A DNA stretch of 64,000 nt from positions 118,707-182,706 of the forward strand of contig CAZEZP010000078.1 in NCBI GenBank assembly GCA_964516435.1, given 5' to 3'. Both the position numbers and the translations under genes were made by a program. The notes under the pieces are model-generated. The model was given only the letters and a program-made list of their open reading frames with translations. It searched no databases and was not told the origin of the DNA. Shown here piece by piece: positions 3,927 to 44,346 of this stretch. Source of the DNA: an uncultured Kofleriaceae bacterium. GTDB lineage: Bacteria; Myxococcota_A; Polyangia; HGW-17. Every line of letters starts with the position of its first letter. The first letter of the stretch is position 1.

Positions 3927-3954
3927 TTGCAAGAAAGGCGGCTTTCCATACTAT
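3927..3954 (+). promoter_or_regulatory. candidate sigma70 promoter for the EBP operon
   Basis: TTGCAA-N16-TACTAT lies about 45 nt upstream of the GTG start at 3996, in the divergent intergenic region that also contains the palindrome CCCGGGActTCCCGGG (3868-3883). Confidence 0.35.
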
Positions 3955-3995
3955 CCCTGCTTGAGCCCATATGCGGGCATTTTCGAGGTACGAGC

Positions 3996-26083: not shown

Positions 26084-27019
26084 GTGAAAGATGGCGAAGT
26101 GATGGAAGAACTGAATCGTTTTGCTCCCCATCTCATCCAGGCGCTTTTAGTGCTGGTTCAGGGCGTCGGCGCCGGTGCGCTGGCGGCCAGCGCCGTTTCG
26201 TATTTTTTATACAAAAACCCCACCCATTCCGGAACCGTTCGCCGCCCGGAAACAAAGGCGGCTTCGGCACCGGTCAAACCCCAGTACCAAGCCGATTACA
26301 AGGCGCTTCTCCAGCGCAACATGTTCTGCGCGTCCTGCGATCCCATCCTGGTGGAGGAAACCCCGGCGCCCGGAGACGCGACGGCGGCGGCGGGATCCAG
26401 AGCCGCCACGCTGGAGGGAGCCGCGCTGGTGACCACGATGGTGGCTTCCGATCCGAAGGATTCGCTGGCGACCGTGGTGCTCACGGATCAGTCGGACGCC
26501 AAGTTCGTGCTGCTCTCCGAAGGGGATTCCTTTGGCGACGCCCAGGTGGTTTCCATCGAGCCCAAGCGCGTGGTGTTCATGCAGAACGGGCAGGAGAAGG
26601 TGCTCGAACTGATGGGCGAGCCCAAGAATACGCCGATCGTGGCCACGACGACCCCGCCGCCCGGCATGGGGAACACCGGCCCGGGCGACGACCAGATCCG
26701 CCAGGTGGGACCCAACAAGTACGAGGTGGACCGCTCGGTGATCACGGACTTCATGAAGAACATGGCCACGGCGTCCAGCGGCGCCCGCGTCATGCCGGAT
26801 CCCAACGGCGGCTTCCGCGTCACGTTCGTCCGCTCCTTCTCGATTTTCTACAAACTCGGAATCCGTTCCGGAGACGTCATTTCTTCCGTGAACAACATCC
26901 AACTGGATTCCATCGACCAGACGTTCGCCCTGTACACGAAACTCAAGGACGCCAATCACCTCACGGTGACACTCAACCGCGGCGGCCAGACCATCAACAT
27001 GGATTACTCCATCCGGTAA
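26084..27019 (+). CDS. gspC: type II secretion system protein C
   Basis: N-terminal TM helix and a C-terminal PDZ-like domain (GDVISSVNNIQLDSIDQ...LTVTLNRGGQ), immediately upstream of the secretin gene. Start is GTG 26084 or ATG 26102. Confidence 0.65.
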   Translation: MKDGEVMEELNRFAPHLIQALLVLVQGVGAGALAASAVSYFLYKNPTHSGTVRRPETKAASAPVKPQYQADYKALLQRNMFCASCDPILVEETPAPGDATAAAGSRAATLEGAALVTTMVASDPKDSLATVVLTDQSDAKFVLLSEGDSFGDAQVVSIEPKRVVFMQNGQEKVLELMGEPKNTPIVATTTPPPGMGNTGPGDDQIRQVGPNKYEVDRSVITDFMKNMATASSGARVMPDPNGGFRVTFVRSFSIFYKLGIRSGDVISSVNNIQLDSIDQTFALYTKLKDANHLTVTLNRGGQTINMDYSIR

Positions 27020-27028
27020 GCGTGCCCC

Positions 27029-29704
27029 ATGAAGATGCAGACACTCTCCCTTTCGGTTTTCCTCTCCATCGTTCTGGCGGCTGGATCCGTCTTCGCGCAG
27101 AATCCGCCGATCAACCGTCCTATCAAACCCATGACCCCGGCAGGCCCTTCTGCACCGCCGCCGCCGACACCGCCTCCACCGCCCGGCGGCTACAATCCGC
27201 AGGCCGGAAATCAGCCTGGATCCAAGCAGCCGCCTCCCGGCTCCACGGCGGACGCCGGGTCGGCCAAGGACGACCCCAATTTCAACGAATGCAAGAACAT
27301 CCCGGGTGGCCGCAAACTCAAGGTGACGCTCAAACCGGAGGCCACGCTGGCGGATCTGGTGTCCTGGATTTCCTCCATCACCTGCAAGCGCTTCATCGTG
27401 AGCGCCGGCCTGCGCGCCCAGCGGGTCACCATCTACAGCCCGTCCGAGGTCACGGCATTCGAGGCGTACAAGGCTTTCCTCTCGGCGCTCGAATCCATGA
27501 ACCTGACGATCGTGCAGACGGGATCCTATTACAAGGTGGTGGAAATCCAGGGCGCCAACAGTAATATCATGCCGCTTCGGCGCCCCGGAGAAGACATTCC
27601 CGACAATGAAAGTTTCACGACGGCCATGATCCGCGTGAAGCACGCGAGCGTTCAGGAAATCGCCGAAGTCCTCGGGAAATTCAAGTCGAAGTATGGTGAT
27701 ATTACAACATATGCGCCGACGAATCTTTTAATCATTACAGATCTGGGAACGAGTATCAACCGTTTGCTCAAGATCCTGAAGCAACTCGACGTGGAAGGCG
27801 TGCACGACGAACGCGTGTGGGTGCTCAAGGTCAAGCACGCGGATGCCGAGGAAATCGCAGGGAAACTGCTGGAAGTCTTCGAAATTTCGGATTCGGGATC
27901 CAGCGGGTCATCGCCATCCTTCGGCGGCCGTCAAACTGCGGGCGGCCCCAAGGTGTACAATCCCGGCGGCCAGCCGCAGGGGGGCGGCGGCGTGCAGAAC
28001 GTCGGAACCAAGAGTTCCATTTCCAAGATCATCGCCGAGCCGCGCACCAACAGCCTGATCGTGGTGGCCAACGACAAGGCGTATCTGGAATTGTTGGCAC
28101 TGTTCAATAAACTTGATGTCCCGTTGCCGGGCGGTGAGGAAAAAATCAACATCATCTATCTCGAGAATGCCATGGCCGAAGACATGGCCTCGCTGCTCAC
28201 CGCGCTCACGGGTGGCTCGTCCATGGGCCGTACCAGCACTACGCGCAGCACGCGCAGCACGCGCACGTCCACGTCGCGCAACACCAACACCCGCCAGCCG
28301 CAGCAGAATTTCAATCCTGGCGCCAATCCCTGGGGTGCCGGTGGAACCGACAGCATCTTCCAGGGCCCGGTGCAGGTGCAGCCCGACACGGCCACCAACT
28401 CGCTCGTGATCGTGGCGTCCAACAAGGATTTCCTGGCGCTCAAGCGCGTCATCAAGGAACTCGACCGGCCGCGCCGGCAGGTGTTCGTGGAAGTGACCAT
28501 CCTCGAGGTGTCCCTCGACAAGACGCGCAATCTGGGGCTTTCCATGCATGCCGGAGACCCTATCGGTTCCGGAGATAAGCAATCTATCCTGTTTGGCGGA
28601 TCCATCACCAATTCCTCGCTCAACTCCATCGTGCTCAATCCGCTTTCCCTGATGGGCCTGGCCGTGGGCCTGCGCGGGCCTGAAATCAAGGATGCCGAAT
28701 CCCTGCTGGGCATTCCGGGGCTCACCCTCCCTTCCTTCGGCGTCATGTTCCAGGCGCTGCAGACGGACAATGCCGTCAACGTCATCTCCTCGCCGCACAT
28801 CCTGACCACCGACAACGAGGAGGCCGAGATCACCGTGGGCGAGAACGTGCCGTTCCAGAGCGGCTACAGTTCCATCTCCTCGCTTCTGGGCAGTTCCTCC
28901 ACGTCGCTGACTTCGCTTCCCATGGTTTCCGTGCAGCGCCAGGACGTGGCCCTGCGCCTGAAGCTCACCCCGCACGTGAACCAGAGCGATTTCGTGCGCA
29001 TGGAGGTGGAGCAGGAAATCAATGAAGTGAAATCCATCGACCCGATCGTGGGACCCACCACGTCCAAGCGCAAGGCCACGACGGTGGTGGTGGTCAAGGA
29101 TCAGCAGACCGTGGTCATCGGCGGCCTGATCACCGAGAAGACCAAGGAGAATGTGCAGAAGGTGCCGCTTCTGGGCGACATGCCGATTCTGGGATACCTG
29201 TTCAAGACGACGACGCGCGTCAACGAGAAGACCAACCTGCTCATCTTCATCACGCCCTACATCATCCGCGACGAGAGCGACCTGCGCCGGATCTTCATGG
29301 AAAAGGTCAAGTTGCGCAAGGAATTCATCGACAAGTATTCTTCCTTCAAGGACCACGATTTCGAGGCCGACATCAATTACAAGCACAAGCACGGCTTCTT
29401 CGAGGAGATCAACCGTACGGCCGCCCGCATGGAAGAGGAAGTGGTGCAGCGCAAGAAGGCCATGGACGAATACAAGGTGGTGGATTCCTCTGGGCCCGTG
29501 GGGGTGAGCAAGACAGACGTCAGGAAATTGCAGGATATGCTGCAGAAACTGCGCGAGGAACAGGAAGCCGAGCCCGTGGATCCGGGCGCGGAGGATGGCG
29601 GCAAAACGGACGCGCCGCCCGCCGACGCGGTCCGGCCGGATTCGAAGGACGAGAAGAAACCGGCCGATTCCGGCTCGAAGAAACCGAAATCCCTCCAGCG
29701 GTAA
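27029..29704 (+). CDS. gspD: type II secretion system secretin
   Basis: Signal peptide, N0/N1 domains, and the secretin core (VPLLGDMPILGYLFKTTTRVNEKTNLLIFITPYII). Contains low-complexity Pro-rich and STRSTRSTRTS stretches. Confidence 0.92.
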   Translation: MKMQTLSLSVFLSIVLAAGSVFAQNPPINRPIKPMTPAGPSAPPPPTPPPPPGGYNPQAGNQPGSKQPPPGSTADAGSAKDDPNFNECKNIPGGRKLKVTLKPEATLADLVSWISSITCKRFIVSAGLRAQRVTIYSPSEVTAFEAYKAFLSALESMNLTIVQTGSYYKVVEIQGANSNIMPLRRPGEDIPDNESFTTAMIRVKHASVQEIAEVLGKFKSKYGDITTYAPTNLLIITDLGTSINRLLKILKQLDVEGVHDERVWVLKVKHADAEEIAGKLLEVFEISDSGSSGSSPSFGGRQTAGGPKVYNPGGQPQGGGGVQNVGTKSSISKIIAEPRTNSLIVVANDKAYLELLALFNKLDVPLPGGEEKINIIYLENAMAEDMASLLTALTGGSSMGRTSTTRSTRSTRTSTSRNTNTRQPQQNFNPGANPWGAGGTDSIFQGPVQVQPDTATNSLVIVASNKDFLALKRVIKELDRPRRQVFVEVTILEVSLDKTRNLGLSMHAGDPIGSGDKQSILFGGSITNSSLNSIVLNPLSLMGLAVGLRGPEIKDAESLLGIPGLTLPSFGVMFQALQTDNAVNVISSPHILTTDNEEAEITVGENVPFQSGYSSISSLLGSSSTSLTSLPMVSVQRQDVALRLKLTPHVNQSDFVRMEVEQEINEVKSIDPIVGPTTSKRKATTVVVVKDQQTVVIGGLITEKTKENVQKVPLLGDMPILGYLFKTTTRVNEKTNLLIFITPYIIRDESDLRRIFMEKVKLRKEFIDKYSSFKDHDFEADINYKHKHGFFEEINRTAARMEEEVVQRKKAMDEYKVVDSSGPVGVSKTDVRKLQDMLQKLREEQEAEPVDPGAEDGGKTDAPPADAVRPDSKDEKKPADSGSKKPKSLQR

Positions 29705-29715
29705 GGAATGCACCC

Positions 29716-31464
<1,749 letters not shown>

Positions 31465-31478
31465 CACGAGGAGCCGCC

Positions 31479-32714
31479 ATGCCGCTGTATGCCTACAAAT
31501 GCCTGGATGCCAAGGGAAAGACGGTCAAGGGCACCCGGGATGCCGACACCGAGAAGGCCCTGCGGGCGCTTTTGCGCAAGGAAGGCCTTTTCCTGCAGGA
31601 AGTGCGTCTGGCCACGGAGAAAAAAGGCAGAGGACTCCAGCGCGAGGTGGATTTATCTTTTTTAAACAAGGTATCTTCCGCCTCCGTGGCCGTGTTCACC
31701 CGCCAGTTGGCTACCCTGCTCAAGGCGGGCGTGCCGCTGACCGAAAGCCTGGCGGCCATCGCGGATCAGTTGCAGAGTGACAAAGGACAGAGAAAACTCG
31801 CGGCGCTGGTGGCCGATGTGCGCCGGGTGGTCAACGAGGGCCGCTCGCTGGCGGAAGCCCTGCAGCAGCATCCCAGGGAATTCAATGAATTCTACGTATC
31901 CATGGTGCGTTCCGGCGAAGCCGCCGGCAATCTCGATTCCGTGCTCTTCACGCTGGCGGATTTCCTGGAGCGCCAGCGCCGCCTCAAGGACAAGGTGTCC
32001 TCGGCCATGACCTATCCCGTCATCATGATGTTCATCACGGCGGGCATGGTGGGGCTGCTCATGACCACGGTCGTGCCCAATGTGGTGACGGTATTCGAGG
32101 ACAGCGGCCAGGTGCTGCCCATCTATACGCGCCTGCTCATCGGTGTGAGCCATTTCGTGGGCTCCTACTGGTTCTGGATGCTTCTGTTCCTTGCCGCGGC
32201 CATCTACGGCTTCCGCAAATGGAAGAATTCCCCATCCGGGCGGCGGCGCTGGGATCGCTTCGTGCTCAAGGCTCCGCTGGCGGGCAATCTCGCGCGCATC
32301 CTGGCCGTGTCGCGCTTCTCGAGCACGCTGGGCACCATGCTGCGCTCCGGGGTGCCCATCCTGCAGTCCCTGGAGATCGCCAAGAGCGTCATGGGCAACA
32401 CGCGCCTGCAGGAGGTGGTCGACGACGTGGCCGTGGCCGTGCGCGAAGGCGAGAGCATGGCGCGCGTCATGGAGCGCTCCGGCGAGTTTCCGCCGCTGGT
32501 GAGCCACATGGTCGCCATCGGCGAGAAATCCGGGCAACTCGACCAGATGCTGCACAACGTGGCCCAGGCCTACGACAACGAACTGGAAACGAGCCTCTCC
32601 CGGCTCACCTCCGTGCTCGAACCGCTCATGATTCTTTTCATGGGTGGTATGGTTGCTTTTATTGTATTTTCAATACTCATGCCGATCATGCAAATGAATA
32701 ATATTGGTTTCTGA
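31479..32714 (+). CDS. gspF: type II secretion system inner-membrane platform protein
   Basis: Duplicated GspF/PilC cytoplasmic domains with three TM segments. GAGGAG Shine-Dalgarno before MPLYAYKCLD. Confidence 0.9.
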   Translation: MPLYAYKCLDAKGKTVKGTRDADTEKALRALLRKEGLFLQEVRLATEKKGRGLQREVDLSFLNKVSSASVAVFTRQLATLLKAGVPLTESLAAIADQLQSDKGQRKLAALVADVRRVVNEGRSLAEALQQHPREFNEFYVSMVRSGEAAGNLDSVLFTLADFLERQRRLKDKVSSAMTYPVIMMFITAGMVGLLMTTVVPNVVTVFEDSGQVLPIYTRLLIGVSHFVGSYWFWMLLFLAAAIYGFRKWKNSPSGRRRWDRFVLKAPLAGNLARILAVSRFSSTLGTMLRSGVPILQSLEIAKSVMGNTRLQEVVDDVAVAVREGESMARVMERSGEFPPLVSHMVAIGEKSGQLDQMLHNVAQAYDNELETSLSRLTSVLEPLMILFMGGMVAFIVFSILMPIMQMNNIGF

Positions 32715-32730
32715 TTCAAGGAGATAACTC

Positions 32731-33171
32731 ATGGAAAACACCGAAATCACCCTCGAAAATACCGCTTCTCCCGCCCGGAACGAAAAGCCCCGCCGCAAGC
32801 CGTACGGCATGACGCTCATCGAAATCATGGTGGTCATCGTCATCATGGGTATGGTCATGGGTGCCGTGACGGTGGGTGTGATGTCGTACCTCAAGAAGGC
32901 CAAGAAGAAGACCACGCAGACCCAGGTCAACCGCATCGCGGCCACCATCAACGCGGAAGCCGCCGAGCCCGAGAACAAGGGCAAGGACGCCAAGGCCATC
33001 CTGGAGGGGCTGGTTTCCGACGGCTCCTTCAAGAAGAAGGATCTGCTCGATGCCTGGGGCAACGAAATCCGCGTGGAGAAGCAGGATCGCACGTTCTGCG
33101 TGATTTCGGCCGGCGCCGACGAGAGTTTCGGCACGGGCGACGACATCAAGGACGAGGACTGCGGTGAGTGA
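32731..33171 (+). CDS. gspG: major pseudopilin
   Basis: Prepilin motif G|MTLIEIMVVIVIMG with Glu at +5. AAGGAG Shine-Dalgarno before the ATG. The leader peptide is unusually long at 26 aa. Confidence 0.85.
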   Translation: MENTEITLENTASPARNEKPRRKPYGMTLIEIMVVIVIMGMVMGAVTVGVMSYLKKAKKKTTQTQVNRIAATINAEAAEPENKGKDAKAILEGLVSDGSFKKKDLLDAWGNEIRVEKQDRTFCVISAGADESFGTGDDIKDEDCGE

Positions 33172-33943
33172 ACCCTTCCCGGATGGAATGCCCCGAAAAG
33201 CGCGAAACTGCCGGCTGGAGAGGACCGGGTTGCATGAAACTGGCTTCACGCTGGTGGAAGTACTCACGGTCGTCATCATCGCGGCGCTGCTGTCGGCCGC
33301 CGTGGCCGCGGGCTTTTCCCAGGTGCCCCGCATGAAACTGCGCGAGGCCGCCCGCAAGATGTCCGGCATCATCCGCTTCGTTTCGGGGCGTGCGCGCACG
33401 TCGCGCACCATCCTGCGCCTGGTCATGGATCTGGACCGCGAGGGCTCCACGGTCACCCTGCAGCAGTATCCGCCGGGACAGCCGGCCCCGGTGCGGGACC
33501 CGCGAATCGAGGAGGAAACCGCGGAAAACCTGGAATGGCGCTATGAGAACTGGGTGCGTTTCGACCCGGCCAATCCGGTGGGCCCACTGGGGCCGGCGGA
33601 TACCGGAAAACCGTTCCTGCCGCCTGTAAGCCAGTGGGAAGAGTTGAAGACCGGACTCAAGGCGAGTTTCGCCCTGGAGGACGTGCGCATCGCCCGCGTG
33701 GTGTTTCCCTGCCTCGGTCAGGAATTCGAGGAAGGCAAGGTGGGGCTCGTCTTCCATCCCGACGGCACCAACGAGGGCGCGGTGATCCTGCTGCGCTCCT
33801 CGGGGGATCACGAAATCAGCCTCATCGTGGATCCCATGGACGGCTCCATCCGCTACGAATCCGGATTCACGGTCCCATCCGACCTGTGCGTGGATGCCGC
33901 GGGCAACGAACTGCCGGCAGGAGGCGAAGACGATGCGCAATGA
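33164..33943 (+). CDS. gspH: minor pseudopilin (GspH-like)
   Basis: Prepilin motif G|FTLVEVLTVVII. The listed ORF starts at GTG 33164. An in-frame TTG at 33230 with a GGAGAGG Shine-Dalgarno would give a canonical 5-aa leader (MHETG), so the true start is uncertain. Confidence 0.6.
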   Translation: MSEPFPDGMPRKARNCRLERTGLHETGFTLVEVLTVVIIAALLSAAVAAGFSQVPRMKLREAARKMSGIIRFVSGRARTSRTILRLVMDLDREGSTVTLQQYPPGQPAPVRDPRIEEETAENLEWRYENWVRFDPANPVGPLGPADTGKPFLPPVSQWEELKTGLKASFALEDVRIARVVFPCLGQEFEEGKVGLVFHPDGTNEGAVILLRSSGDHEISLIVDPMDGSIRYESGFTVPSDLCVDAAGNELPAGGEDDAQ

Positions 33944-34658
33944 ATCCGGCTTCACCCTGCTGGAAGTGATGGTCGCGCTGACCATCCTGGGCATGTCGCT
34001 TTTGTGGCTGCTCAAGGGACAGGCGGATTCGCTCGCGCGCAACATCGGCGCGCGCATGCGCCTGCAGGGAATCCATCTGGCCAACTATAAAATGCTGGAA
34101 ACGGAGCAGTTGATGCGCAAGGAGGGATGCGGCACGTTCGAGGGAGAGACGTGCGGGGATTTCGAATCCGATCACCTCGAGGGCGTGGAGCAGTTCCGCT
34201 ACTGTGTTTCCATCGAGAAAATCGAATTGCCCGATTTGTCCATGTTCACCCAGCAACTCTCCGGCGCCCTGGGGGGCTCGGACACCACGGGCGCGGCCGA
34301 TGCGGCAGCCGCCGGCGACATGCAGTTGCCGCCCTTCTTCCAGGACATCCTCTCCCAGTTGATTCCCGGCGGGGGCGGCGACGTGCTTTCGGGACTCTCC
34401 GGCATGATGGGCAACATATTGACCATGGCCATTTCGACCATCCAGAACGTGCTCGAGCAGGCCGTGCGCCGCGTCCGGGTGACGGTGTTCTGGAACCTGG
34501 GAAAACGTCAAAAATCCTATGAACTGATAGCCTTTTTCACGGATCCCACGGTGCTCGACCAGAACATCCTCGATCTTTCGGGACTGGCTGGTTCTCTGAC
34601 GGGAGGATCCTCCCCGTCCGGCGGAACAAATCCCGCTTCCGGAGGCCGAATTCCATGA
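33933..34658 (+). CDS. gspI: minor pseudopilin (GspI-like, extended)
   Basis: MRNESG|FTLLEVMVALTILG prepilin N-terminus. At 241 aa it is longer than a typical GspI. Confidence 0.6.
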   Translation: MRNESGFTLLEVMVALTILGMSLLWLLKGQADSLARNIGARMRLQGIHLANYKMLETEQLMRKEGCGTFEGETCGDFESDHLEGVEQFRYCVSIEKIELPDLSMFTQQLSGALGGSDTTGAADAAAAGDMQLPPFFQDILSQLIPGGGGDVLSGLSGMMGNILTMAISTIQNVLEQAVRRVRVTVFWNLGKRQKSYELIAFFTDPTVLDQNILDLSGLAGSLTGGSSPSGGTNPASGGRIP

Positions 34659-35485
34659 AACGGCCGCTCGGTTTCACCCTGGTGGAAATGATCGTAGCCA
34701 TGACGCTGGTGGCGTTCATGTCCTTCCTGCTCATTTCCACGGTGCGCACCACGCGCGCGGCCCAGGCCGTTTCCGAGGAGCGCTCCGAGCGCACGTTCGC
34801 CGCCGCCGCCGCCCTGGACATGCTGGTTTCGGATATCAATATGGCCTACCTGTCCATGGCCGAAGACGCCACGGTGGAGTTCAAACGCACTTTTTTCAAG
34901 GCTGTCTTCGACCTGGGCGGCATGGACGTGATGTTTTCCACGCTCTCGCACCGTCCTTCTTCGCGCAATGCCAAGGAATCCGATTCCTGCGTGGTGCATT
35001 ACCGCCTGGAGAGGGATCCGGAGAGCAAGGGCCGCTATTCCCTCGTGCGCAGCGAGTCCTACCGGCTGGAAGCCTCCGACCCGCTCAATCTGCCGGCCCG
35101 TACCCGCCGCCTCGTGCGCGGCGTGGCCGTTTTCGAGATGTGGTTTTTCGATCCGACGCGCGACGAATGGATCGACACCTGGGACACCACCACGCTCGAC
35201 GGCCAGAACCAGCGGCTGCCTTCGCTCGTGCGCATCCATCTGGGCGTGGATACGGGCACCGGCTTCATCATGCATTTCCACACCATGGCGCGGCCGCACA
35301 TCCAGGAGCCGCTCAACCTGCTTCCGGCGACGGGCCGCGTGACGCAGTTCAAGACCCAGGAAGGAACCCGCGGCGGCAGCAGCGACGGGTCCAGGCCTTC
35401 GGATGGCTCCTCGCGCCCGTCGCGCCCCGACGGCGGCGGCCCGTCGCGCCCGGTGCGGCCCATCGAAATGCCCAAGGTGCAGTGA
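34655..35485 (+). CDS. gspJ: minor pseudopilin (GspJ-like)
   Basis: MKRPLG|FTLVEMIVAMTLVAF prepilin N-terminus. ATGA overlap with the previous gene. Confidence 0.6.
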   Translation: MKRPLGFTLVEMIVAMTLVAFMSFLLISTVRTTRAAQAVSEERSERTFAAAAALDMLVSDINMAYLSMAEDATVEFKRTFFKAVFDLGGMDVMFSTLSHRPSSRNAKESDSCVVHYRLERDPESKGRYSLVRSESYRLEASDPLNLPARTRRLVRGVAVFEMWFFDPTRDEWIDTWDTTTLDGQNQRLPSLVRIHLGVDTGTGFIMHFHTMARPHIQEPLNLLPATGRVTQFKTQEGTRGGSSDGSRPSDGSSRPSRPDGGGPSRPVRPIEMPKVQ

Positions 35486-35487
35486 CC

Positions 35488-36747
35488 ATGCGCAGCGCGA
35501 CGCCTTTCTCCCGTCCCTCCCCTTCCCGCGGCCAGCGGGGCGTGGCCCTGCTGGTGGTGGCGTTCGGCCTGTCGCTGGTGGCGGTGCTTGTCCAGATCTT
35601 CATCTATCGCAGCCAGATCCACCACCGCAGTGCGATCGCCGAGGGGGAACGGCTGCGCGCCCGCTACTACGCCTATTCCACGCTGGAGATCGCGCGCATC
35701 TTCCTGCGGGTGCAGGCCAAGTTCATCGACAACAATTCCATGGCCCAGAATCTGGGTCTGGACATGACGCAACTGGTGCCCACGATCATTCCGCTCTTCT
35801 TCGACGAAGGACTTGCATCGAAGATGCTGGGCGGGGAAGCACTCGGACTGGGCGCCTTGCCGGAAAAGGGTTCGGGCGTGCTCGACGTGTTCCGCCCGGA
35901 GGAAGGCCGCATCAATGTCAATTGCGCCTACAACTCCACACAACTGGAGCGCTTCAACCAGTTGACGCTGGGCCTCTTTCTGGACCGCCGCTACGACGAA
36001 CTCTTCGGACGTGTGCTCGACGACGGCCAGACGCTGGACCGGCCGTCACAGGTGGCCGCCATCGTGGATTACATCGATCTGGATCAGAGTTCCACGGGAA
36101 GCACCGAAGATGAAAACTCGTATTACAAGAATCTTCCACAACCCAGCCTGTCTCGAAACAATCTGCTGGATACGGTGAGCGATCTTCGCCTGATTCGCGG
36201 CGTGGACGACATCTTCTGGGCCAATTTCGGCTCCAGTTTCAGCGTCTACGGCGGCTGCCAACTGCACCTGTGCGCCATGGATCCCGAAAACTGGCAACTG
36301 CTCGCGGCCCTCATCGTGCTTACGGCGGTCAATCCCAACGATCCCGTCATCACGGACCCCGTGAAACTCAAACTGCTGGCCGCGACCGTGGCGCCGCAAA
36401 TCCCCGTGCTGTGCCAGGACCTGCAGGCGTTCGTGCAGGCAGTGGCCAATCCGGGCGCGGCGTCCACGCTCATCTCGGGCCTCACGCAGACGTCGGTCGA
36501 GGATTCCGGCGACCTGGGCGGGGATGGCATCGCGGACGCCCAGGTACAGGGCGTGGAACTGGATGCGGCCAAACTGCGCTCGCTCGTGGTGGGCGGCCAG
36601 AAGCGCTATTACCGTCTGCGGGCCGTCGGCGTTTCAGACCAGGCCGCCTTTTCCATCGAGGCCGTCTGGGACCAGTTGGCCGTCTCCACGCAGGCGAACG
36701 CCTCGGCATCGGGTCCGGGCGCCTACATTTACTGGAAAGAAGATTGA
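35488..36747 (+). CDS. gspK: type II secretion system protein K (minor pseudopilin, no E+5)
   Basis: Hydrophobic N-terminus GVALLVVAFGLSLVAV without Glu+5, and a GspK-type EGRINVNCA helix-hairpin-helix region. The real start lies inside a 535-aa read-through frame. Confidence 0.7.
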   Translation: MRSATPFSRPSPSRGQRGVALLVVAFGLSLVAVLVQIFIYRSQIHHRSAIAEGERLRARYYAYSTLEIARIFLRVQAKFIDNNSMAQNLGLDMTQLVPTIIPLFFDEGLASKMLGGEALGLGALPEKGSGVLDVFRPEEGRINVNCAYNSTQLERFNQLTLGLFLDRRYDELFGRVLDDGQTLDRPSQVAAIVDYIDLDQSSTGSTEDENSYYKNLPQPSLSRNNLLDTVSDLRLIRGVDDIFWANFGSSFSVYGGCQLHLCAMDPENWQLLAALIVLTAVNPNDPVITDPVKLKLLAATVAPQIPVLCQDLQAFVQAVANPGAASTLISGLTQTSVEDSGDLGGDGIADAQVQGVELDAAKLRSLVVGGQKRYYRLRAVGVSDQAAFSIEAVWDQLAVSTQANASASGPGAYIYWKED

Positions 36748-36756
36748 GGTCGGCTC

Positions 36757-38505
36757 ATGACATTGTGCGGATCCATCGATATCGGCTCCTCCACCCTGGC
36801 CGGGTGCGTCGTGGAAAAGAATCGCGCGGGCGTGCGCGTGCTGCGCTATGAAGTCCTTCCCCGTCCCGCCGATGCGGAAGGCTTTTCCGCGGCCCTGCGG
36901 GAACTGGCCGCGCGCCTGGATTTCTCCCATGTGCGGCACGTGGCGGCCAACGTGGACGGTCCCCTGTTCGTGCGCAACCTGGAATTTCCATTCGCGGACC
37001 TGAAGAAGGTGGAGCCCCTGGTGAACTACGAGCTCGACGAGCAGATTCCCGGGGACGTGGAAGACATGGTGGTGGTGACGGTGCCCACGGTTCTCAGGGA
37101 GAAGACCGAGGTGCTGGCGGCGGCCGTCCCGCGGGAGACCATTTCTGCCCAACTGCAGGCGTTTGCGCAGGCGGGCATCCAGCCGTACCGCCTGGTGCAT
37201 CCCGCCGCGCGCGCCGCGATTCTGGCGGGTGCGGAAAAAGGCTGCACGGCGGTCATCGACATCGGGGCCACCCTGACCCATCTGGCCGCCGTTGTGGACG
37301 GCCGCCTGCGTTCCGTGCGGACATGGGCCGAAGGCATGGAATCCCTGGTCAGCGCGCTGGCTGCCTACAGTTCACAGAATCCAGAACAGATTCGTTCCTG
37401 GCTCTCTTCTTCGGGGCACATCCAGCCGCCCGTTCCCGGCGAGGAAGGGTACGAGGAGGTCATCCGTTCGTCCATGGGCCGCGCCTTCGAAGAATGGCGG
37501 CGTTTCCTGCTGCAGGCGCAGGCCCGCCACGGCGTGCCGGTCTCCCGGCTGGTGCTGTGCGGCGCCGGCGCGCGGTTGGCCGGATTGGCCGCTGTGGCGG
37601 CTTCCTTCTTCGAGATTCCCGTGCAGATCGCCCAGATTCCAGGCGACGTCCCGGATCCCAAGCGCGCATCCGTGGCCGCGCAGGCGCTGTCGTGCCTGCA
37701 GCCGGAAATCCTCAATTTCCGCCGTGGCGAATTCGCGTATGGCTCCGGGGAGAGCCTCGTCAAGAAGAAGGCTCTGGCCATCGCGTGGGGATTGAGCCTC
37801 TTCTTCCTGATGACCTCCGTATCCGCCCTGTTCACCCTGTGGCGCCTCGAGAGGGAAGAGAAGGATGCGCTCGAGCGCCTGGGGCGGATCAGCGGGGAAG
37901 TGCTAGGCAAGACCACCTACAATCCGGCTTCCGTGCGCAAGCAGGTCAAGCAGCGTTCCCAGAAGGGCGCGCGCGCTTCCTCCGGTGCCCAGTTGCCTTC
38001 CATGAGCGCCTGGACGCTTCTGAGCCTGATTTCCCAGAACCTGCCGGAAAATGCCCTGCGCGCATCCGGAAATCCGGCGCCGGAGGCTCCGGGAACAGCG
38101 GAAAAGAAAGAGGAAAAGAAGGAAGAATCGCCGGAAACCGCCAAGACCGAGGCCGCCAGGCCGGCGGATTCGGGCAGTCCATCGGGTTCGGATGCGAAAG
38201 CCGGCGTTCCGGGCGAAAGCGCCGAAAACAAGCCGGATTCCGGCAAGGAGGGCGACAGGAAGGAAGAAAAGAAGGAAGAGCCCATTTCCCCGGTCGTGGT
38301 GGACATCCAGAAACTGCACATCCGCTCCGGCAAGGTGACCCTGGGCGGCGTCGTCACCAAGGCCCAGGAGGTGGATGAAATCGTGCGCGCGCTCAAGCGC
38401 ATCCCCTGCTTCCAGGAGATTGCTCCGGGCGCCATCAAGACGGTGGGTTCGGGAGCGGACGAAAAGCGCGAATTCTCCATCGAAATCACGATGGACTGCC
38501 TGTAG
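36757..38505 (+). CDS. gspL: type II secretion system protein L (actin-like cytoplasmic domain + TM + periplasmic domain)
   Basis: N-terminal GSIDIGSSTL PilM/GspL actin-like fold, a single TM helix (LAIAWGLSLFFLMTSVSALFTLW), and a K/E-rich linker. Confidence 0.65.
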   Translation: MTLCGSIDIGSSTLAGCVVEKNRAGVRVLRYEVLPRPADAEGFSAALRELAARLDFSHVRHVAANVDGPLFVRNLEFPFADLKKVEPLVNYELDEQIPGDVEDMVVVTVPTVLREKTEVLAAAVPRETISAQLQAFAQAGIQPYRLVHPAARAAILAGAEKGCTAVIDIGATLTHLAAVVDGRLRSVRTWAEGMESLVSALAAYSSQNPEQIRSWLSSSGHIQPPVPGEEGYEEVIRSSMGRAFEEWRRFLLQAQARHGVPVSRLVLCGAGARLAGLAAVAASFFEIPVQIAQIPGDVPDPKRASVAAQALSCLQPEILNFRRGEFAYGSGESLVKKKALAIAWGLSLFFLMTSVSALFTLWRLEREEKDALERLGRISGEVLGKTTYNPASVRKQVKQRSQKGARASSGAQLPSMSAWTLLSLISQNLPENALRASGNPAPEAPGTAEKKEEKKEESPETAKTEAARPADSGSPSGSDAKAGVPGESAENKPDSGKEGDRKEEKKEEPISPVVVDIQKLHIRSGKVTLGGVVTKAQEVDEIVRALKRIPCFQEIAPGAIKTVGSGADEKREFSIEITMDCL

Positions 38506-38523
38506 CCGGGGGGAGGTGGACAC

Positions 38524-39171
38524 ATGAATTTCACGCAACGCATCGAAAACGCCTATGACCAACTCGCCCCACGGGAACGCCGCGTGGTGGTGGCGCTTTT
38601 GTTCGTGGTCGTATTTTTCATTTTCTCGGTGTTCGCATTCTTCATCATCGATGCTTTCGATGAGCGCCGGGAACGCATCCGGGCCATCGAGGACGCCATT
38701 TCGCTTCTCCAGAAGAATGCGCCGCAACTGCAGGAGAAGCAGGAGAGTCTGGGCAGCCTGGAATTCAAGGCCGTACAGAAGCCGCCCTCCCTGCAGGGGC
38801 ATCTGGACCAGTTGGCCACCCAGGTGGGCCTTTCGCCCAACTTCACGCCCCAGAAGCCCAAGGATCTGGGCGACAACCAGGAATACCAGGTGGAAAGCGT
38901 GGAAGTGCGCTTCAACGACGCCCCGATCGCGAGTTTCATCCAGTTTCTCGACAGCATCGAGAAAGGCGCCAGCCTGATTCTGGTCACCGAGATCAAGCTC
39001 AACACGCGCCGCGGGCAGCCGGATCGCATCGATCCTACGATAGTTGTAAGTAGTTATTACAAGAGAAGTGCTGAAGAATTGAAACAATTGCATGAAAAAG
39101 CCTTGGATGAAAAAAACAAAGGCAAGAGTAGTGACAGCAAAGACGAAAAACCCGTGACCGATGAGATTTGA
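38524..39171 (+). CDS. gspM: type II secretion system protein M
   Basis: Bitopic protein with an N-terminal TM helix (VVVALLFVVVFFIFSVFAFFII) and the position and size typical of GspM. The C-terminal 45 aa are encoded by an AT-rich K-rich tail. Confidence 0.6.
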   Translation: MNFTQRIENAYDQLAPRERRVVVALLFVVVFFIFSVFAFFIIDAFDERRERIRAIEDAISLLQKNAPQLQEKQESLGSLEFKAVQKPPSLQGHLDQLATQVGLSPNFTPQKPKDLGDNQEYQVESVEVRFNDAPIASFIQFLDSIEKGASLILVTEIKLNTRRGQPDRIDPTIVVSSYYKRSAEELKQLHEKALDEKNKGKSSDSKDEKPVTDEI

Positions 39172-39219
39172 CATGGCTTGTAAGAAGCCCGTCCACATCG
39201 GGAAGGGAGTTGGACCCTC

Positions 39220-40347
39220 ATGCTCAAGAAAATCGCAATCAGAGTGGCCGTGGCCTTCGGGTATTCGCTGCTGGGAGGGCTGGCGTTCTACCTGGCCTTC
39301 GACGGATTCATGGACTGGAACCTCGTGCGCCAGCGCGTGGCGTACGAACTGGAGCGCTCCACGGGCTACGACGTGAAGCTCTCCTCCGTGTCTCTGTCGG
39401 GATTTTCGGGCATGACGCTCGAAGGACTGGTCCTGGAAGAGAGGAATCCCAAGGATCCCGAAAAGCCCACCCGCATCAAGGTGGCGCAACTGGATCTGAA
39501 GATGGGAATCTGGGGCATGCTGCGCGGCCGGCGCGAGGTGGATTTCGACGCCGAGGCTCTGGGCGGCCAGATTCGCGGGCGTTTCGTGGAATCCAGAAAG
39601 TCGCGCCACGTGGACCTGGACATCGACGGCATCAGGGTGGACCAGATTCCAGGGATGGCCTCCGCCATCACGCTGCCGCTCACCGGCCGCCTGGACGTGA
39701 AGGGCTACCTGGACATGCCTCCCGACGGTCTCAAGTCCGCCGACGGAAAGATCCATCTCTCCTGCCGCAAGTGCGTCATGGGCGACGGCAAGGCCAAGGT
39801 CAAGGCATCCTTCGTGGCCACCCCCAACAATCCGGGTTCCGCCGCGTGGGCCAAGGAAGGCTTCACGCTGCCGCCGCTGTCGCTGGGCAAGTTCGCGGGC
39901 GAGGTGGAAATAAAAAAAGGCAAGGCCACGTTCCGCGACATCTCGGCATCGAGCCCCGACGGCGAGGCGGAACTGAGCGGCTTCATCACGTTCCGCACGC
40001 CGGTGAAGATTTCCTCCACGAACCTGTACTTCCGCTTCAAGTTCTCCGACGAGGTGAAGAAGCGCCATCCCAACCTCGAGGGCATCGAGATGTCGCTTTC
40101 GGCCCGCGGCAAGCGCGCCGACGGCTATTTCGGCATTTCCATGACGGGCCAACTCGGTTCCATGCGCTTCATGCCGGCCAAGACGGGCGTCAAGGATTTC
40201 GCGCGGCCCGAGGGCGAGCCCGGAATCGAACTCAAGCCCGGCGGCACGCGTTTCGAGAAGCCCGACAAGTCTGCGCCCGACAAGCCCCCGCGCACCCGGC
40301 GCGAGCGCCCTTCCACTCCGCTTCCGGAAGGCGAGAAATGGGAATGA
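39220..40347 (+). CDS. gspN: type II secretion system protein N
   Basis: N-terminal TM helix and a GspN-like periplasmic domain. Last gene of the gsp operon; C-terminal Pro/Arg-rich tail. Confidence 0.6.
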   Translation: MLKKIAIRVAVAFGYSLLGGLAFYLAFDGFMDWNLVRQRVAYELERSTGYDVKLSSVSLSGFSGMTLEGLVLEERNPKDPEKPTRIKVAQLDLKMGIWGMLRGRREVDFDAEALGGQIRGRFVESRKSRHVDLDIDGIRVDQIPGMASAITLPLTGRLDVKGYLDMPPDGLKSADGKIHLSCRKCVMGDGKAKVKASFVATPNNPGSAAWAKEGFTLPPLSLGKFAGEVEIKKGKATFRDISASSPDGEAELSGFITFRTPVKISSTNLYFRFKFSDEVKKRHPNLEGIEMSLSARGKRADGYFGISMTGQLGSMRFMPAKTGVKDFARPEGEPGIELKPGGTRFEKPDKSAPDKPPRTRRERPSTPLPEGEKWE

Positions 40348-40394: not shown

Positions 40395-41552
40395 ATGTTT
40401 CCTTTTATTTATTACAATCCAGTTCGCATATTGTTTGGTCAAAATGCATTGGAAAAACTGGATGGGAAATGGCTGGGCGAAGGACCGGTCCTGGTGCTTT
40501 CCGCCGGCCGCTCGTTTGCGGAAAGCGGCGCGCGCGCGGCGGTGCTCGCAAAACTGGCCGGCCGGGATTTCGTGGAATTTCCGGGCATCCGGCCCAACCC
40601 GCACCTGGACCAGTTGCTCGATGCCGTGGCCCTCGTGCGCGAAAAGCGCGTCGGGTTCATCCTGGCGTGCGGCGGCGGCTCCGTCATCGACGCGGCCAAG
40701 TTCATCGCGGCCGCGGCCGTGCACGAGGGTTCGGATCCATGGGATCTGGTCATCGGCAAGGCCAAGATCCGCAATGCCCTGCCGCTGGGCGCCGTGCTCA
40801 CGCTGCCGGGCACGGGCTCCGAGCACAACGATGGCGCCGTGATTTCCCGCAGTTCCCCCACGGACAAGCAGGCTTTCCGCAATGAAAGGCTCTATCCGCG
40901 CTTCGCCGTGCTGGATCCCGCCTTCACGCTGAGCCTGCCCTGGCGGCAAACGGCCAACGGCATCGCGGACGCCTTCGTGCACGTGATGGAGCAGTACGCC
41001 ACGCGCCCGGATTTCGCGCCGCTGCAGAACCGTCTGGCCGAATCCATCCTGGCCACGCTGGTGGAGACGGCGCCGCTCGTGCGCGCCCGGCCGCAGGATC
41101 TGGCGGTGCGCGGGGAAATCATGTGGTGCGCAAGCCTGGCGCTCAACCGGCTCATCGGCTGCGGCGTGGCGCAGGATTGGACGACACACCTGATCGGCCA
41201 CGCGGTCACGGCCGTCACCGGCATGGATCACGCCCGCACACTCACGGCGATTCTGCCGCAACTGCTGCGCGACCGCCTGGAATCCAAGCGTGCACGCCTG
41301 GCGCAGATGGGCCGGCGCGTCTTTTCCATCGCCGAGGCCGACGACACCCGCGCCGCCTTGGCCTGCATCGAAGCCATCGAATCCTTCTTCCTTTCGCTGG
41401 ACATGCCGGTGCGCCTGCCTGCCGACGAATGCCCGCCCTCGTCTCTACCCGCCATTCTTGAGATCTGCTCGCGCTACCGCTTCGGCCTGGGCGAAAACCG
41501 CGACCTCTTCCTCCCCGACCTCTCCCGCATCCTCACCTCCAGCCTGCAGTAA
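40395..41552 (+). CDS. iron-containing alcohol dehydrogenase (YqhD/BdhA-like)
   Basis: Fe-ADH motifs GGGSVIDAAK, TLPGTGSE, and the His-rich metal site HLIGHAVTAVTGMDHA. Confidence 0.88.
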   Translation: MFPFIYYNPVRILFGQNALEKLDGKWLGEGPVLVLSAGRSFAESGARAAVLAKLAGRDFVEFPGIRPNPHLDQLLDAVALVREKRVGFILACGGGSVIDAAKFIAAAAVHEGSDPWDLVIGKAKIRNALPLGAVLTLPGTGSEHNDGAVISRSSPTDKQAFRNERLYPRFAVLDPAFTLSLPWRQTANGIADAFVHVMEQYATRPDFAPLQNRLAESILATLVETAPLVRARPQDLAVRGEIMWCASLALNRLIGCGVAQDWTTHLIGHAVTAVTGMDHARTLTAILPQLLRDRLESKRARLAQMGRRVFSIAEADDTRAALACIEAIESFFLSLDMPVRLPADECPPSSLPAILEICSRYRFGLGENRDLFLPDLSRILTSSLQ

Positions 41553-41831: not shown

Positions 41832-42118
41832 AAATAGAGACACAAACAAAACAAAACAACATTACACAATTTTTTTCATTTTTTTTGCTCCTTGTTATTG
41901 TTTGAAAATTTCAAAAAAAACCGAACAAATCAACGATAGATAAAATCAAAACTTTGTAAATTAAAATTAATAAAAATGTATAGGTTTGTCAAGCCGGTTT
42001 TTTCATTAAAAATTTTTCAGCGTGAGAAACACGAATACCGGAACTTCTGTCAGATGCAGGAAAAACTTCCGTCTTTCAGCGAAGAAGACCATTTTGCGGT
42101 CTTCAGAAAGGATTGCTC

Positions 42119-43231
42119 ATGAAAACGATGAACGAACAGGAAATGCGCCGGCAATTTGAGGCCGAATACCAGAAAACCCGCCAGAAGAACTTCAAGCGTC
42201 CCAACATTCTGGTGATCGGCTATACGGGAGCCGGAAAAACATCCCTGATCCAGACGATCCTGGGCAATGACCTGGTGCCGGAAAGCAAGATCGGCAGCGG
42301 AAAGCCCGTCACCCAGGGATACGAATACTTCGAAAACGAACTGATTCGCCTCTGGGATTCCAAGGGCTTCGAACTCGGCCACACGGAAGCGGAGTTCATG
42401 GAGAACACGCGCCGCTTCCTGCGGGAGCGCCAGAACGATCCGGACGTGGACAATCACATCCACCTGATCTGGTATCTCATCCAGGGGCCTTCCGCCCGCG
42501 TCACGGATTGCGACCGCAGTCTGATCCAGAACATTCTCCCGAAAAACCGCACGCTCGTGGCGATCAGCAAGGTCGACATCACGCGTCCCCAGCAGGAAGC
42601 CGCCATCCGTGAAATCGTCGAATCCTGCGGAATTCCGGCCAGCCAGATCTTTGCGGTATCCGATGCGCAGGCGAGATCCATCGGCGTCAGGGAGTTGGTG
42701 GCGCGCTCGTATGAGATGCTTCCGGACGCCTACCGGGCCGCTTTCGTGGATGCGCAGATCGTGGACCGCGAGATGAAGATTGCCGAAATCCGAAGCCGCA
42801 AGGGCAAGGCTTCGGCCATAATCTCTACCGCCACGGCGGCCGCAGCGGCCATTGGCGCCACTCCCATCCCCGTTTCCGATGCACCGATCCTGATGGGCGT
42901 GCAGGTGAGTCTGATCGGTTCCCTGGCGGCCCTGTACGATTTGCCGAAAGAAGGACTGAAACAACTCGCCTATCCCCTGCTTCTTCGTATGGTCGGCATA
43001 TACACGGCTTCCAGTCTGCTGAAACTCTTTCCTTTTCTGGGTTCTGCGATCAACGCGGCCGTCGCGGGCACGCTCACCGGTGCCCTGGGCTGGTACGTCG
43101 CCAATAAGTTCGAGAAAGCCGCCATCGCCCGCATCGAATCGAACTCACAGTATTATATCGACAACATCGATTTCGATATCGATGAATTCATGAACTTCAA
43201 GAATCAATACGAAAAGGAGCAGGGCAGATGA
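42119..43231 (+). CDS. GTPase-domain protein with C-terminal membrane/DUF697-like region
   Basis: G1 GYTGAGKTS, G3 DSKG, G4 SKVD. The C-terminal hydrophobic Gly/Ala-rich segment resembles YcjF/DUF697. AAAGGA Shine-Dalgarno. Confidence 0.7.
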   Translation: MKTMNEQEMRRQFEAEYQKTRQKNFKRPNILVIGYTGAGKTSLIQTILGNDLVPESKIGSGKPVTQGYEYFENELIRLWDSKGFELGHTEAEFMENTRRFLRERQNDPDVDNHIHLIWYLIQGPSARVTDCDRSLIQNILPKNRTLVAISKVDITRPQQEAAIREIVESCGIPASQIFAVSDAQARSIGVRELVARSYEMLPDAYRAAFVDAQIVDREMKIAEIRSRKGKASAIISTATAAAAAIGATPIPVSDAPILMGVQVSLIGSLAALYDLPKEGLKQLAYPLLLRMVGIYTASSLLKLFPFLGSAINAAVAGTLTGALGWYVANKFEKAAIARIESNSQYYIDNIDFDIDEFMNFKNQYEKEQGR

Positions 43232-44250
43232 AACCCAACATTCTCGTATGTGGAAAGACGGGGTCCGGAAAAACCTCGCTCATACAGGCGATCACCGATG
43301 ACGGGACCGTTCCGGAAAGCGCCATCGGCCATGGTGCGCCCGCCACGCGGGGATTCCAGGTGTATTCGACCCCGGCTGCCAATTTCATCGATACGGAGGG
43401 CTTTGTGCCCGGGCAGTCCCTGGAAGAAATGGTCGAATTCATCCGTGCGGAAATGCGGCGCCGGCTGGCAAGCGACTCGCCCGAATTTCTGGTGCATTGC
43501 ATCTGGTTCTGTGTGGACGGCAGCGGCGCCCGCATCACGGATGCGGAAATGCAGGTGATTCGGCATTTTTCGTCGCGATGCCTCCTGGTCCTCACCAAGA
43601 TGGACCTGCTCGAGGGGAGTGACCGCGGCAGGAAACAACGGGAAGAACTGCATGCCGCGGCGCAATCCTGCCTGGATGCCTCCCGCATCGTGATCGTATC
43701 GGCGAAGGACAGGACGGGATTGAAAACGCTCGTTGAGCAATCGGAAAATCTGGCCCGGGAAACCATGCTGGGCGCGCAGGAGGAATTGCGCCGTTTCTGG
43801 CAGACCTGGGAAGGATATTTCCGGGAACGCCGCCAGCAGTGGCTGGCGCGTGCCGCACAACGGGCCGATGAAGCCATCAGATGGGCAGCCGGCCGGGCGG
43901 CGGCCATTGCCATCGTTCCCATTCCGCTGGCCGACGTGGGACCGCTGGTGCTCAATGAAATCTACATGATCCACCGGATTGGAAATGCATATGGCATCAG
44001 TGTCACGCAGTCCATGGTGGCCATGTTGCTGGGCGCCAGTGCGGCCAGCACTCTGGGAAAAATCCTGGCCAGTTTCCTGCCGGGCTTCAAGATCCCCATC
44101 GCCGCCGCCATCACCTACGGTCTGGGCAAGGGCGTCAAGGCGTATTTCGAATCCGGCATGGAACTCAGTCCGGAAGAACTGAAGATACTCGTCCAGGAAG
44201 AAACGGAAAAAGCCAGGAAAAATGATTTTCAACCCATTCGGGAAGAATGA
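43228..44250 (+). CDS. GTPase-domain protein, paralogue of the upstream gene
   Basis: G1 GKTGSGKTS, G3 DTEG, G4 TKMD, and a similar C-terminal DUF697-like region. ATGA overlap with the upstream paralogue. Confidence 0.7.
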   Translation: MKPNILVCGKTGSGKTSLIQAITDDGTVPESAIGHGAPATRGFQVYSTPAANFIDTEGFVPGQSLEEMVEFIRAEMRRRLASDSPEFLVHCIWFCVDGSGARITDAEMQVIRHFSSRCLLVLTKMDLLEGSDRGRKQREELHAAAQSCLDASRIVIVSAKDRTGLKTLVEQSENLARETMLGAQEELRRFWQTWEGYFRERRQQWLARAAQRADEAIRWAAGRAAAIAIVPIPLADVGPLVLNEIYMIHRIGNAYGISVTQSMVAMLLGASAASTLGKILASFLPGFKIPIAAAITYGLGKGVKAYFESGMELSPEELKILVQEETEKARKNDFQPIREE

Positions 44251-44346
44251 AATTTTGCTGTAGAGTTCCTGCTTTTTAATAATCTTCCAAAAAAATGGTT
44301 GTCTGATTTGAAAAGTTGTGAAAATACTCAGTCAAAGGGGTTTGTC

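Follow-up and report, generated by a model that had tools for sequence, protein, structure and literature searches.

A complete operon for a type II secretion system (T2SS) occupies positions 26084-40347 of the 64-kb stretch of DNA analysed here (contig CAZEZP010000078.1 of an uncultured Kofleriaceae bacterium), which is called the window below. It consists of 12 genes on the plus strand, gspC-D-E-F-G-H-I-J-K-L-M-N, spaced by -11 to +48 nt. According to the window composition around the operon, the G+C content of the locus is ~62%. An earlier note on this DNA had recognised twelve gsp genes in canonical order, and this is borne out by curated models, profiles and gene positions. Of the components by which a T2SS is defined, the operon encodes GspC, the secretin GspD, GspE, GspF, GspL, GspM, one major pseudopilin (GspG) and four minor ones (GspH, GspI, GspJ and GspK). 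The region is a complete standard operon of the Myxococcota type or 'delta type', a T2SS variant that is already recognised by the curated NCBI models GspC_delta and GspN_Lepto. The main subject of this analysis is the leader peptide of GspG. It is 26 amino acids (aa) long and, as comparison of related sequences indicates, it is an inherited trait of the lineage and not a local oddity.

The operon starts with gspC (26084-27019), which encodes a GspC of the delta-proteobacterial type (NF041515 GspC_delta, 199.5 bits, cut-off 150). Its C-terminal PDZ domain matches PDZ_6 and PDZ_2 at residues 242-307. The gspC start is uncertain and may be either GTG 26084 or ATG 26102. The secretin gene gspD (27029-29704) is identified by TIGR02517 (499 bits, cut-off 351) and by a match to Escherichia coli GspD (2e-58), and its product contains the domains Secretin (PF00263), Secretin_N (PF03958) and GspD N0 (PF21305). 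The assembly ATPase is encoded by gspE (29716-31464; T2SSE 2.8e-143, MshEN N-terminal domain, E. coli GspE match 1e-126). The inner-membrane platform gene gspF (31461-32714) specifies two copies of the T2SSF domain (4.3e-66). It begins at GTG 31461 or ATG 31479; the public gene call comprises 411 aa. The major pseudopilin gene gspG (32731-33171) encodes a precursor of 146 aa that matches N_methyl (PF07963, 32.5 bits, cut-off 21.2) and TIGR02532 (25.7 bits, cut-off 16.3).

Four genes for minor pseudopilins follow. The product of gspH (33164-33943) is recognised by its position, a class III signal and a weak N-terminal match to TIGR01708 (5e-06), that of gspI (33933-34658; 241 aa) by a match to the GspI core fold. 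GspJ (34655-35485) has an N_methyl domain and a weak full-length match to TIGR01711 (1e-4, residues 6-196); PF11612 T2SSJ is recorded on a Logan product identical to it. GspK (35488-36747) matches T2SSK_1st (34.9 bits, cut-off 26.2) and NF037980 (8e-16). GspL (36757-38505) reaches 24.7 bits with T2SSL, just below the cut-off of 25.5, and matches TIGR01709 (5e-9) as well as PilM_2 and FtsA. It is composed of an actin-like (PilM/FtsA-like) cytoplasmic domain, a transmembrane segment, a K/E-rich linker and a periplasmic domain. GspM (38524-39171) is found by T2SSM (30.1 bits, cut-off 27.8) and NF040576 (1.7e-7), and GspN (39220-40347) is of the Leptospira/delta type (TIGR04411 T2SS_GspN_Lepto, 155 bits, cut-off 50). 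A promoter and terminator scan over the operon performed no better than on shuffled sequence.

GspH, GspJ, GspK, GspL and GspM as well as the ends of GspD and GspN are enlarged, mostly by low-complexity segments. GspD, GspJ, GspL and GspN are extended by long stretches of low complexity that their E. coli K-12 homologues lack. The N-terminal linker of GspD is Pro-rich and its C-terminal tail of ~140 aa is K/E-rich, the tail of GspJ is rich in Ser, Gly and Pro and that of GspN is basic and Pro-rich. The K/E-rich linker of GspL spans approximately residues 440-520.

The start of gspG can be read from the DNA. gspF ends at 32714 and is followed by a Shine-Dalgarno (SD) sequence, AAGGAG (32718-32723), located 7 nt before the gspG ATG at 32731. 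An in-frame TAA is found upstream of this ATG at 32725-32727. The only other ATG, GTG or TTG before the hydrophobic helix is the Met+1 codon at 32809. The SD sequence, the in-frame stop codon and the lack of alternative start codons fix the start, and the 26-aa leader, the AAGGAG motif and the missing alternative start that had been described before are thereby confirmed. The leader peptide is encoded by 32731-32808 on the plus strand and has the sequence MENTEITLENTASPARNEKPRRKPYG. With the slash denoting the predicted cleavage site (G/MTLIE), the precursor reads MENTEITLENTASPARNEKPRRKPYG/MTLIEIMVV... and would yield the 26-aa leader and a mature protein of 120 aa with Met+1 and Glu+5. The region KPRRKPYG/MTLIEIMVVIVIMGMVMGAVTVGV displays the features of a class III signal, i.e. 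a hydrophilic leader ending in Gly, ~20 hydrophobic residues and Glu+5. This sequence marks GspG as a prepilin that carries a class III signal peptide. An identical product of 146 aa is encoded by a 193-kb NCBI contig and by the Logan assembly of run SRR6186653.

As the pseudopilin sequences diverge too far for equivalog models, their identities were tested by other means. With a profile built from GspG homologues, the best match in the PDB is the PulG filament subunit 5WDA (E = 7.5e-22), and this match extends over the whole mature protein. XcpT and EpsG (1e-13) and GspG of enterohaemorrhagic E. coli are next.

The comparison with relatives is based on 95 GspG homologues from databases, all of the Myxococcota type, and on 80 genome loci from Myxococcota in which the motif GMTLIEIM is encoded. 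Among the latter, 75 have a GspG-sized gene and were used to determine leader lengths. In 94 of the 95 homologues, the site G/MTL(I/L)E is found, and the leader of the called genes has a median length of 18 aa (interquartile range 15-24). Since gene callers can inflate N-termini, starts were re-derived from the DNA. The distance from the nearest in-frame ATG, GTG or TTG upstream of G-1 provides a hard lower bound for the leader, and this bound has a median of 19 aa over the 75 loci. Starts supported by an SD sequence are present at 68 of the 75 loci; the median leader length is 21 aa there, the shortest leader has 13 aa, and no leader has 9 aa or less. Leaders that short are possible in principle at only seven of the 75 loci, where the start with a strong SD sequence yields 19-63 aa. 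AGGAG or AGGAGG precedes the long-leader start of gspG in the relatives, too.

Leader length differs between lineages: It is 16 aa in cultured Archangium, 13 aa in metagenome-assembled genomes (MAGs) of Myxococcaceae, 21 aa in many Polyangiales and Sandaracinaceae and 20-30 aa at the genome loci of the nearest relatives of the window. The closest genomes are the MAGs HGW-Deltaproteobacteria-17 and -22 as well as MAGs labelled Kofleriaceae and Haliangium, with GspG identities of 75-87%. A profile search of 1.84 billion cluster representatives (clusters at 50% identity) yielded 8,344 relatives at E <= 1e-10. Among the best 150 of these matches, 131 had measurable leaders, with medians of ~21 aa for proteins with Met+1 and 15.5 aa for those with Phe+1. 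As relatives across the phylum carry a long leader, it is a habit of the lineage, and the apparent anomaly disappears. This means that the view of an unusually long leader holds against textbook systems, where it exceeds the 9 aa of E. coli K-12 GspG approximately threefold, but not within Myxococcota. The comparison of leader lengths among GspG orthologues, which the earlier note had proposed as a check, found long leaders to be the rule across this phylum. In every Myxococcota GspG examined (80 loci, 95 proteins), position +1 is Met and not Phe, and the mature N-terminus MTLIEIMVV is nearly invariant.

The composition and evolution of the leader indicate which of its parts are constrained. 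Gly occupies position -1 without exception (67 of 67 loci), R/Q/R/R/R prevail from -2 to -6, and the leaders carry a median net charge of +5. The leader in the window has a charge of +1 overall and of +4 in its last eight residues. Its N-terminal half is acidic/polar, and the basic cluster adjoins G-1. The G+C content at third codon positions (GC3) of the leader is 0.73. Compared with the four closest genome relatives, the proportion of non-synonymous differences (pN) is 0.45-0.52 in the leader versus 0.04-0.10 in the mature part. By this measure, the leader evolves 5-10 times faster than the mature protein, whose first ~50 residues are identical in the window and these four relatives while synonymous sites are about half saturated. 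The ratio of non-synonymous to synonymous rates (dN/dS) over the 26 leader codons is 0.3-0.9, mostly below 1. As the ratio is noisy, with saturation of synonymous sites in many pairs, only the contrast in non-synonymous divergence is relied on. Insertions and deletions in the leader come in whole codons among the relatives, which keep the upstream frame open. In the AlphaFold model, GspG residues 1-28 have no predicted structure, and the confidence score pLDDT (predicted local distance difference test) is below 50 for residues 1-20, which are thus predicted to be disordered. On these sequence patterns, the leader is translated, and only G-1 and the basic stretch at approximately -2 to -6 are clearly constrained. 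This is as expected for a peptide that sets membrane topology and is then discarded.

Within the operon, leader lengths are mixed: 26 aa in GspG, 27 aa in GspH and 18 aa in GspK versus 6 aa each in GspI and GspJ. The least certain start among the pseudopilin genes is that of gspH. GTG 33164 overlaps the gspG stop codon by 8 nt, has a GAGG motif 6 nt upstream and results in the 27-aa leader. Alternatives are ATG 33188 (19 aa), used in the NCBI gene call, and TTG 33230 (5 aa). The shortest possible GspH leader comprises 29 aa in three relatives and 14 aa in a fourth, and GspH homologues have leaders of 14-40 aa with one case of 5 aa. GTG 33164 is most likely the start, because its position, its SD sequence, translational coupling and the inability of the relatives to have short leaders all favour it. 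Thus, the long GspH leader suspected before is likely, although with 27 and not 28 aa, and the 5-aa form starting at TTG is disfavoured by the relatives. In a BLASTP comparison, the GspH leaders of the window and of an 85%-identical relative did not align. The 18-aa leader of GspK (ATG 35488) is followed by G/VALLVV. No alternative start codon is available to gspK, and Glu+5 is lacking.

For gspI, ATG 33933 is the most likely start; AGGAGG precedes it by 8 nt, and the leader that results has 6 aa. A start at 33894 is unlikely, and both public gene calls comprise 241 aa. Mature GspI has 235 aa versus 119 aa in E. coli K-12. The claim that it is twice the normal length is correct, yet this size is shared across the clade: 116 GspI-like homologues from Myxococcota have a median mature length of 235 aa (5-95% range 202-267). 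The structural model contains a long alpha-1 helix, two strands, an insert, two more strands, a helix and a disordered Gly/Ser tail. Approximately 81 residues of the model superpose on the entire soluble domain of XcpV. The insert of ~75 aa (residues ~102-177) is located between strands two and three and is modelled as helical, at low confidence for residues 110-160 and at high confidence for 160-177. According to this model, GspI of the window is a GspI core fold with an insert and a Gly/Ser tail. The length of the insert is conserved across Myxococcota, and no structural relative of it was identified. When a profile of the GspI alignment was compared with PDB sequences, matches were limited to the N-terminal helix of pilins.

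Pfam scans of ~50 open reading frames (ORFs) that cover the window revealed no Peptidase_A24 domain, and phmmer searches with E. coli K-12 GspO, GspA and GspB against window ORFs of at least 50 aa yielded nothing at E <= 0.01. As positive controls, E. coli GspD, GspE, GspF, GspG and GspK found the expected ORFs in the window by phmmer. A strict GxGD regular expression for A24 peptidases found nothing either, and a loosened motif that was validated on E. coli GspO (GYGDFK) still had no credible match. Pfam and phmmer thus agree with the previous statement that gspO/pilD, gspA and gspB are missing from the window. No pilotin was seen in the window, where small ORFs were not scanned exhaustively. 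GspA, GspB and GspS are accessory, and many type II systems do without them. Among the 80 Myxococcota loci, none encodes an A24 peptidase within 10 kb of gspG (phmmer and the motif GxGD(V/I/F)K), so that an unlinked peptidase is the normal arrangement in this clade.

Such an arrangement is not without precedent. An unlinked, shared PilD is known from Myxococcus xanthus, Pseudomonas aeruginosa and Shewanella (PMC3223724, PMC12075869). In Shewanella, one PilD serves all systems of this kind (PMC3223724). M. xanthus has an essential prepilin peptidase, PilD (mxan_5779), that is discussed as a general enzyme; promiscuity is a known property of prepilin peptidases (PMC12075869). Furthermore, no deletion of gspD, gspE, gspG or gspK could be obtained in M. 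xanthus (bioRxiv 10.1101/2022.03.08.483542). In the operon of the window, 6-aa leaders occur side by side with leaders of 18-27 aa, which means that leader length does not specify a special peptidase. Together with the basic, disordered leader of GspG, this mixture makes a single unlinked peptidase of the PilD type the likely processor. By analogy to M. xanthus, GspG is likely to be processed by one such enzyme encoded elsewhere in the genome.

The operon of the window shares with Klebsiella oxytoca Pul and E. coli Gsp (gspC-O) the gene order from C to N, the secretin, the ATPase, the platform, GspL and GspM, and one major plus four minor pseudopilins. As in these systems, GspG aligns with PulG over the whole mature protein, the core fold of GspI matches and GspK lacks Glu+5. 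Differences concern the subtypes and the equipment: GspC belongs to the delta subtype and GspN to the Leptospira/delta type, and gspO, gspA and gspB are missing from the cluster. In E. coli K-12, leaders comprise 9 aa (GspG), 6 aa (GspH), 6 aa (GspI), 7 aa (GspJ) and 7 aa (GspK), so that the 26, 27 and 18 aa of GspG, GspH and GspK in the window stand against 9, 6 and 7 aa. In addition, GspG of the window has Met+1 instead of Phe and 120 instead of 136 aa in its mature form, and GspH, GspI, GspJ, GspK, GspL and GspM are all larger and contain low-complexity inserts. With M. xanthus and other Myxococcota, the system has in common the GspC subtype NF041515, the invariant GMTLIEIM, long basic leaders, the double-size GspI and the unlinked peptidase. 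In length, leaders of the window type (25-30 aa) are in the upper range compared to Myxococcaceae (13 aa) and Archangium (16 aa), and their N-terminal half is acidic.

In all probability, this is a standard Myxococcota T2SS whose long GspG leader is inherited, drifts and is discarded, and neither a different class of filament nor a dedicated peptidase is involved. By analogy to the biogenesis of type IV filaments, preGspG would be inserted into the membrane via the signal recognition particle/Sec pathway, whereas its hydrophilic, locally basic 26-aa leader would stay in the cytoplasm. An unlinked aspartic peptidase of the PilD family, probably that of the type IVa pilus, would cut after Gly26, and the same enzyme would be expected to methylate Met+1. 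GspE, GspF, GspL and GspM would then polymerise mature GspG of 120 aa under a tip of GspH, GspI, GspJ and GspK, and the growing pseudopilus would push substrates through GspD. The N-terminal extension would be a disordered, fast-drifting appendage that is lost upon cleavage, and its length would, therefore, be free to vary between lineages from 13 to ~40 aa.

Some observations do not sit easily with a freely drifting appendage. The leader is held at 25-30 aa in the subclade of the window although its sequence diverges, and an acidic N-terminus (MEN, MSEN...E...) recurs in close relatives. With a dN/dS mostly below 1, selection may act on its length or composition. Moreover, cleavage, methylation and both identity and location of the peptidase are inferred throughout.

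The steady length and the acidic N-terminus favour the idea that the extended leader has been selected for a function of its own. It might gate or delay processing by the shared peptidase, hold the abundant major subunit off the platform until cleavage or dock on a cytoplasmic Gsp component. In its specific form, the Arg-rich leader on GspG, and also on GspH and GspK, would be a selected device that times or places maturation by the peptidase shared with type IVa pili. Both the general and the specific form appear doubtful, with an outside chance of being correct. The trait is found phylum-wide, none of the 68 SD-supported loci reverts to 9 aa or less, the subclade length of 25-30 aa persists despite sequence turnover at a recurrently acidic N-terminus, and long leaders are present on GspG, GspH and GspK, not on GspI and GspJ. 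Against this, no conserved motif is seen beyond the basic stretch near G-1, the length varies three-fold between lineages, no structure is predicted and the non-synonymous divergence is near that of unconstrained sequence. Furthermore, leaders in other systems can be shortened without effect (PMC4471445). If the idea were true, this would be a prepilin leader with a regulatory role beyond membrane topology, e.g. in slowing cleavage or in keeping the precursor off the GspF/GspL platform.

It is very improbable that GspG is a type IVb- or Tad-like pilin that is cut by a dedicated peptidase of the type IVb/Tad class instead of a PilD-type enzyme. The earlier note had called leaders of this length typical of type IVb pilins and Tad systems. 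GspG does resemble type IVb pilins (TcpA, BfpA, CFA/III) and Flp/Tad pilins in its long leader (~15-30 aa in these groups) that ends in Gly and in its non-Phe residue at +1. Both features are classical for type IVb: a leader of 26 aa according to PMC4471445, a residue other than Phe at +1 by general knowledge. However, protein body and gene cluster are those of a T2SS, and the cluster does not encode a dedicated peptidase. The 120 aa of mature GspG match the structures of PulG, XcpT and EpsG over their full length with the E-values given above, whereas TcpA (2e-5) and CFA/III (9e-4) match in the N-terminal helix only. A mature pilin of ~180-200 aa, a type IVb fold and a type IVb assembly cluster are not found. 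Likewise, GspG has neither the Flp motif G/XXXXEY with its Tyr+6 nor the size of Flp pilins (~50-80 aa), and the window contains no tad genes and no A24 peptidase. The operon, a canonical gspC-N set, contains no genes of a type IVb or Tad system, its own GspI and GspJ carry 6-aa leaders, and GspI of E. coli has Met+1 as well. Classical type IVa prepilins have leaders of fewer than 10 aa (PMC4471445), but two reviews no longer regard leader length as a valid discriminator of classes, since type IVa leaders of up to 18 aa and the very long ones of Streptococcus sanguinis type IVa pilins are known (PMC4471445, PMC10191384). The major pilins of S. sanguinis set a precedent for GspG of the window, as they have 'very long' leaders outside the type IVb class and are processed by a PilD-type peptidase (PMC10191384). 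They differ in belonging to a type IVa pilus of a monoderm, whereas the window encodes the T2SS of a diderm. Fold, gene context, mixed leaders and the reviews hence speak against a type IVb or Tad affiliation.

Very improbable is an annotation artefact, i.e. translation from the ATG at Met+1 (32809) that would generate a leaderless pseudopilin in no need of a peptidase. Every member of the family has an ATG at Met+1, in the window it is the sole other start codon of gspG, and such a start would explain why no peptidase is encoded near any gsp cluster. However, an SD-like motif 4-11 nt before this ATG is present in only three of the 75 loci versus 68 of 75 at the upstream start, and a leaderless GspG was rejected on this count. 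The invariant G-1 and the conserved basic residues at -2 to -6 make sense only if they are translated and recognised. In addition, the upstream frame remains open with whole-codon indels across divergent relatives, and the minor pseudopilins, which have ordinary G/F sites, would still require a peptidase. A sequencing or assembly error upstream of G-1 that created an artificial extension can be dismissed as next to impossible, since nothing was found in its favour, the identical 146-aa product is present in the NCBI contig and the Logan assembly (which may share reads), and in five related genomes an equivalent leader is likewise open, with its start supported by an SD sequence.

The surroundings of the operon contain a number of other genes. 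A sigma-54-dependent response regulator with receiver, Sigma54_activat and HTH_8 domains is encoded at 3684-5480 (plus strand), 20 kb upstream of the operon. Between 16000 and 22000, the G+C content is 0.45-0.54 compared to 0.60-0.65 on both sides. This region comprises genes for an ABC (ATP-binding cassette) exporter (16947-18485, plus strand), a recF-like SMC_N protein (19121-20155, minus strand) and dnaN (20185-21297, minus strand) with a GC3 of ~0.57-0.66. dnaN has no adjacent dnaA, and a search for DnaA boxes revealed no enrichment in the window. Downstream of the operon, a gene for an Fe-dependent alcohol dehydrogenase (40395-41552) starts 47 nt after gspN. It is followed by two tandem paralogous GTPase genes on the plus strand (42113-43231 and 43228-44250), which overlap by 4 nt and whose products have a C-terminal DUF697.

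A block of lower G+C content (0.49-0.57) between 44000 and 62000 contains signalling and ATPase genes. They encode a tetratricopeptide repeat (TPR) protein (44299-46803), a Fer4_12 radical-SAM-like protein (48328-48903), a double-AAA ATPase (48920-51469), a PP2C phosphatase (52082-53854), a VWA protein (53878-55182), a Ser/Thr kinase (56252-58582), a histidine kinase (58579-60024) and a response regulator (60028-61020). A transposase of the Mutator family (IS256-like) is located at 62160-63101 on the minus strand. It is split into two adjacent ORFs, 62160-62756 and 62784-63101, that cover profile positions 222-378 and 131-215, respectively. It lies at the end of the lower-G+C block and probably represents an insertion sequence that has decayed or suffered a frameshift.

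Among the papers that were accessible to the search, none provides a description of long basic leaders on myxobacterial pseudopilins, nor of a double-size GspI with an inserted segment or of enlarged tip pseudopilins. The long basic leader is under-described but not new in kind. For annotation, the lesson is that Myxococcota and many environmental relatives normally have GspG leaders of 13-40 aa, Met+1 and an unlinked peptidase. As long leaders are normal in Myxococcota, leader length is no ground for rejecting start codons or for placing a pilin in the type IVb or Tad class. As descriptive observations, these points are modest; they leave current models of the T2SS unchallenged and are possibly of interest for the apparently essential T2SS of Myxococcus.

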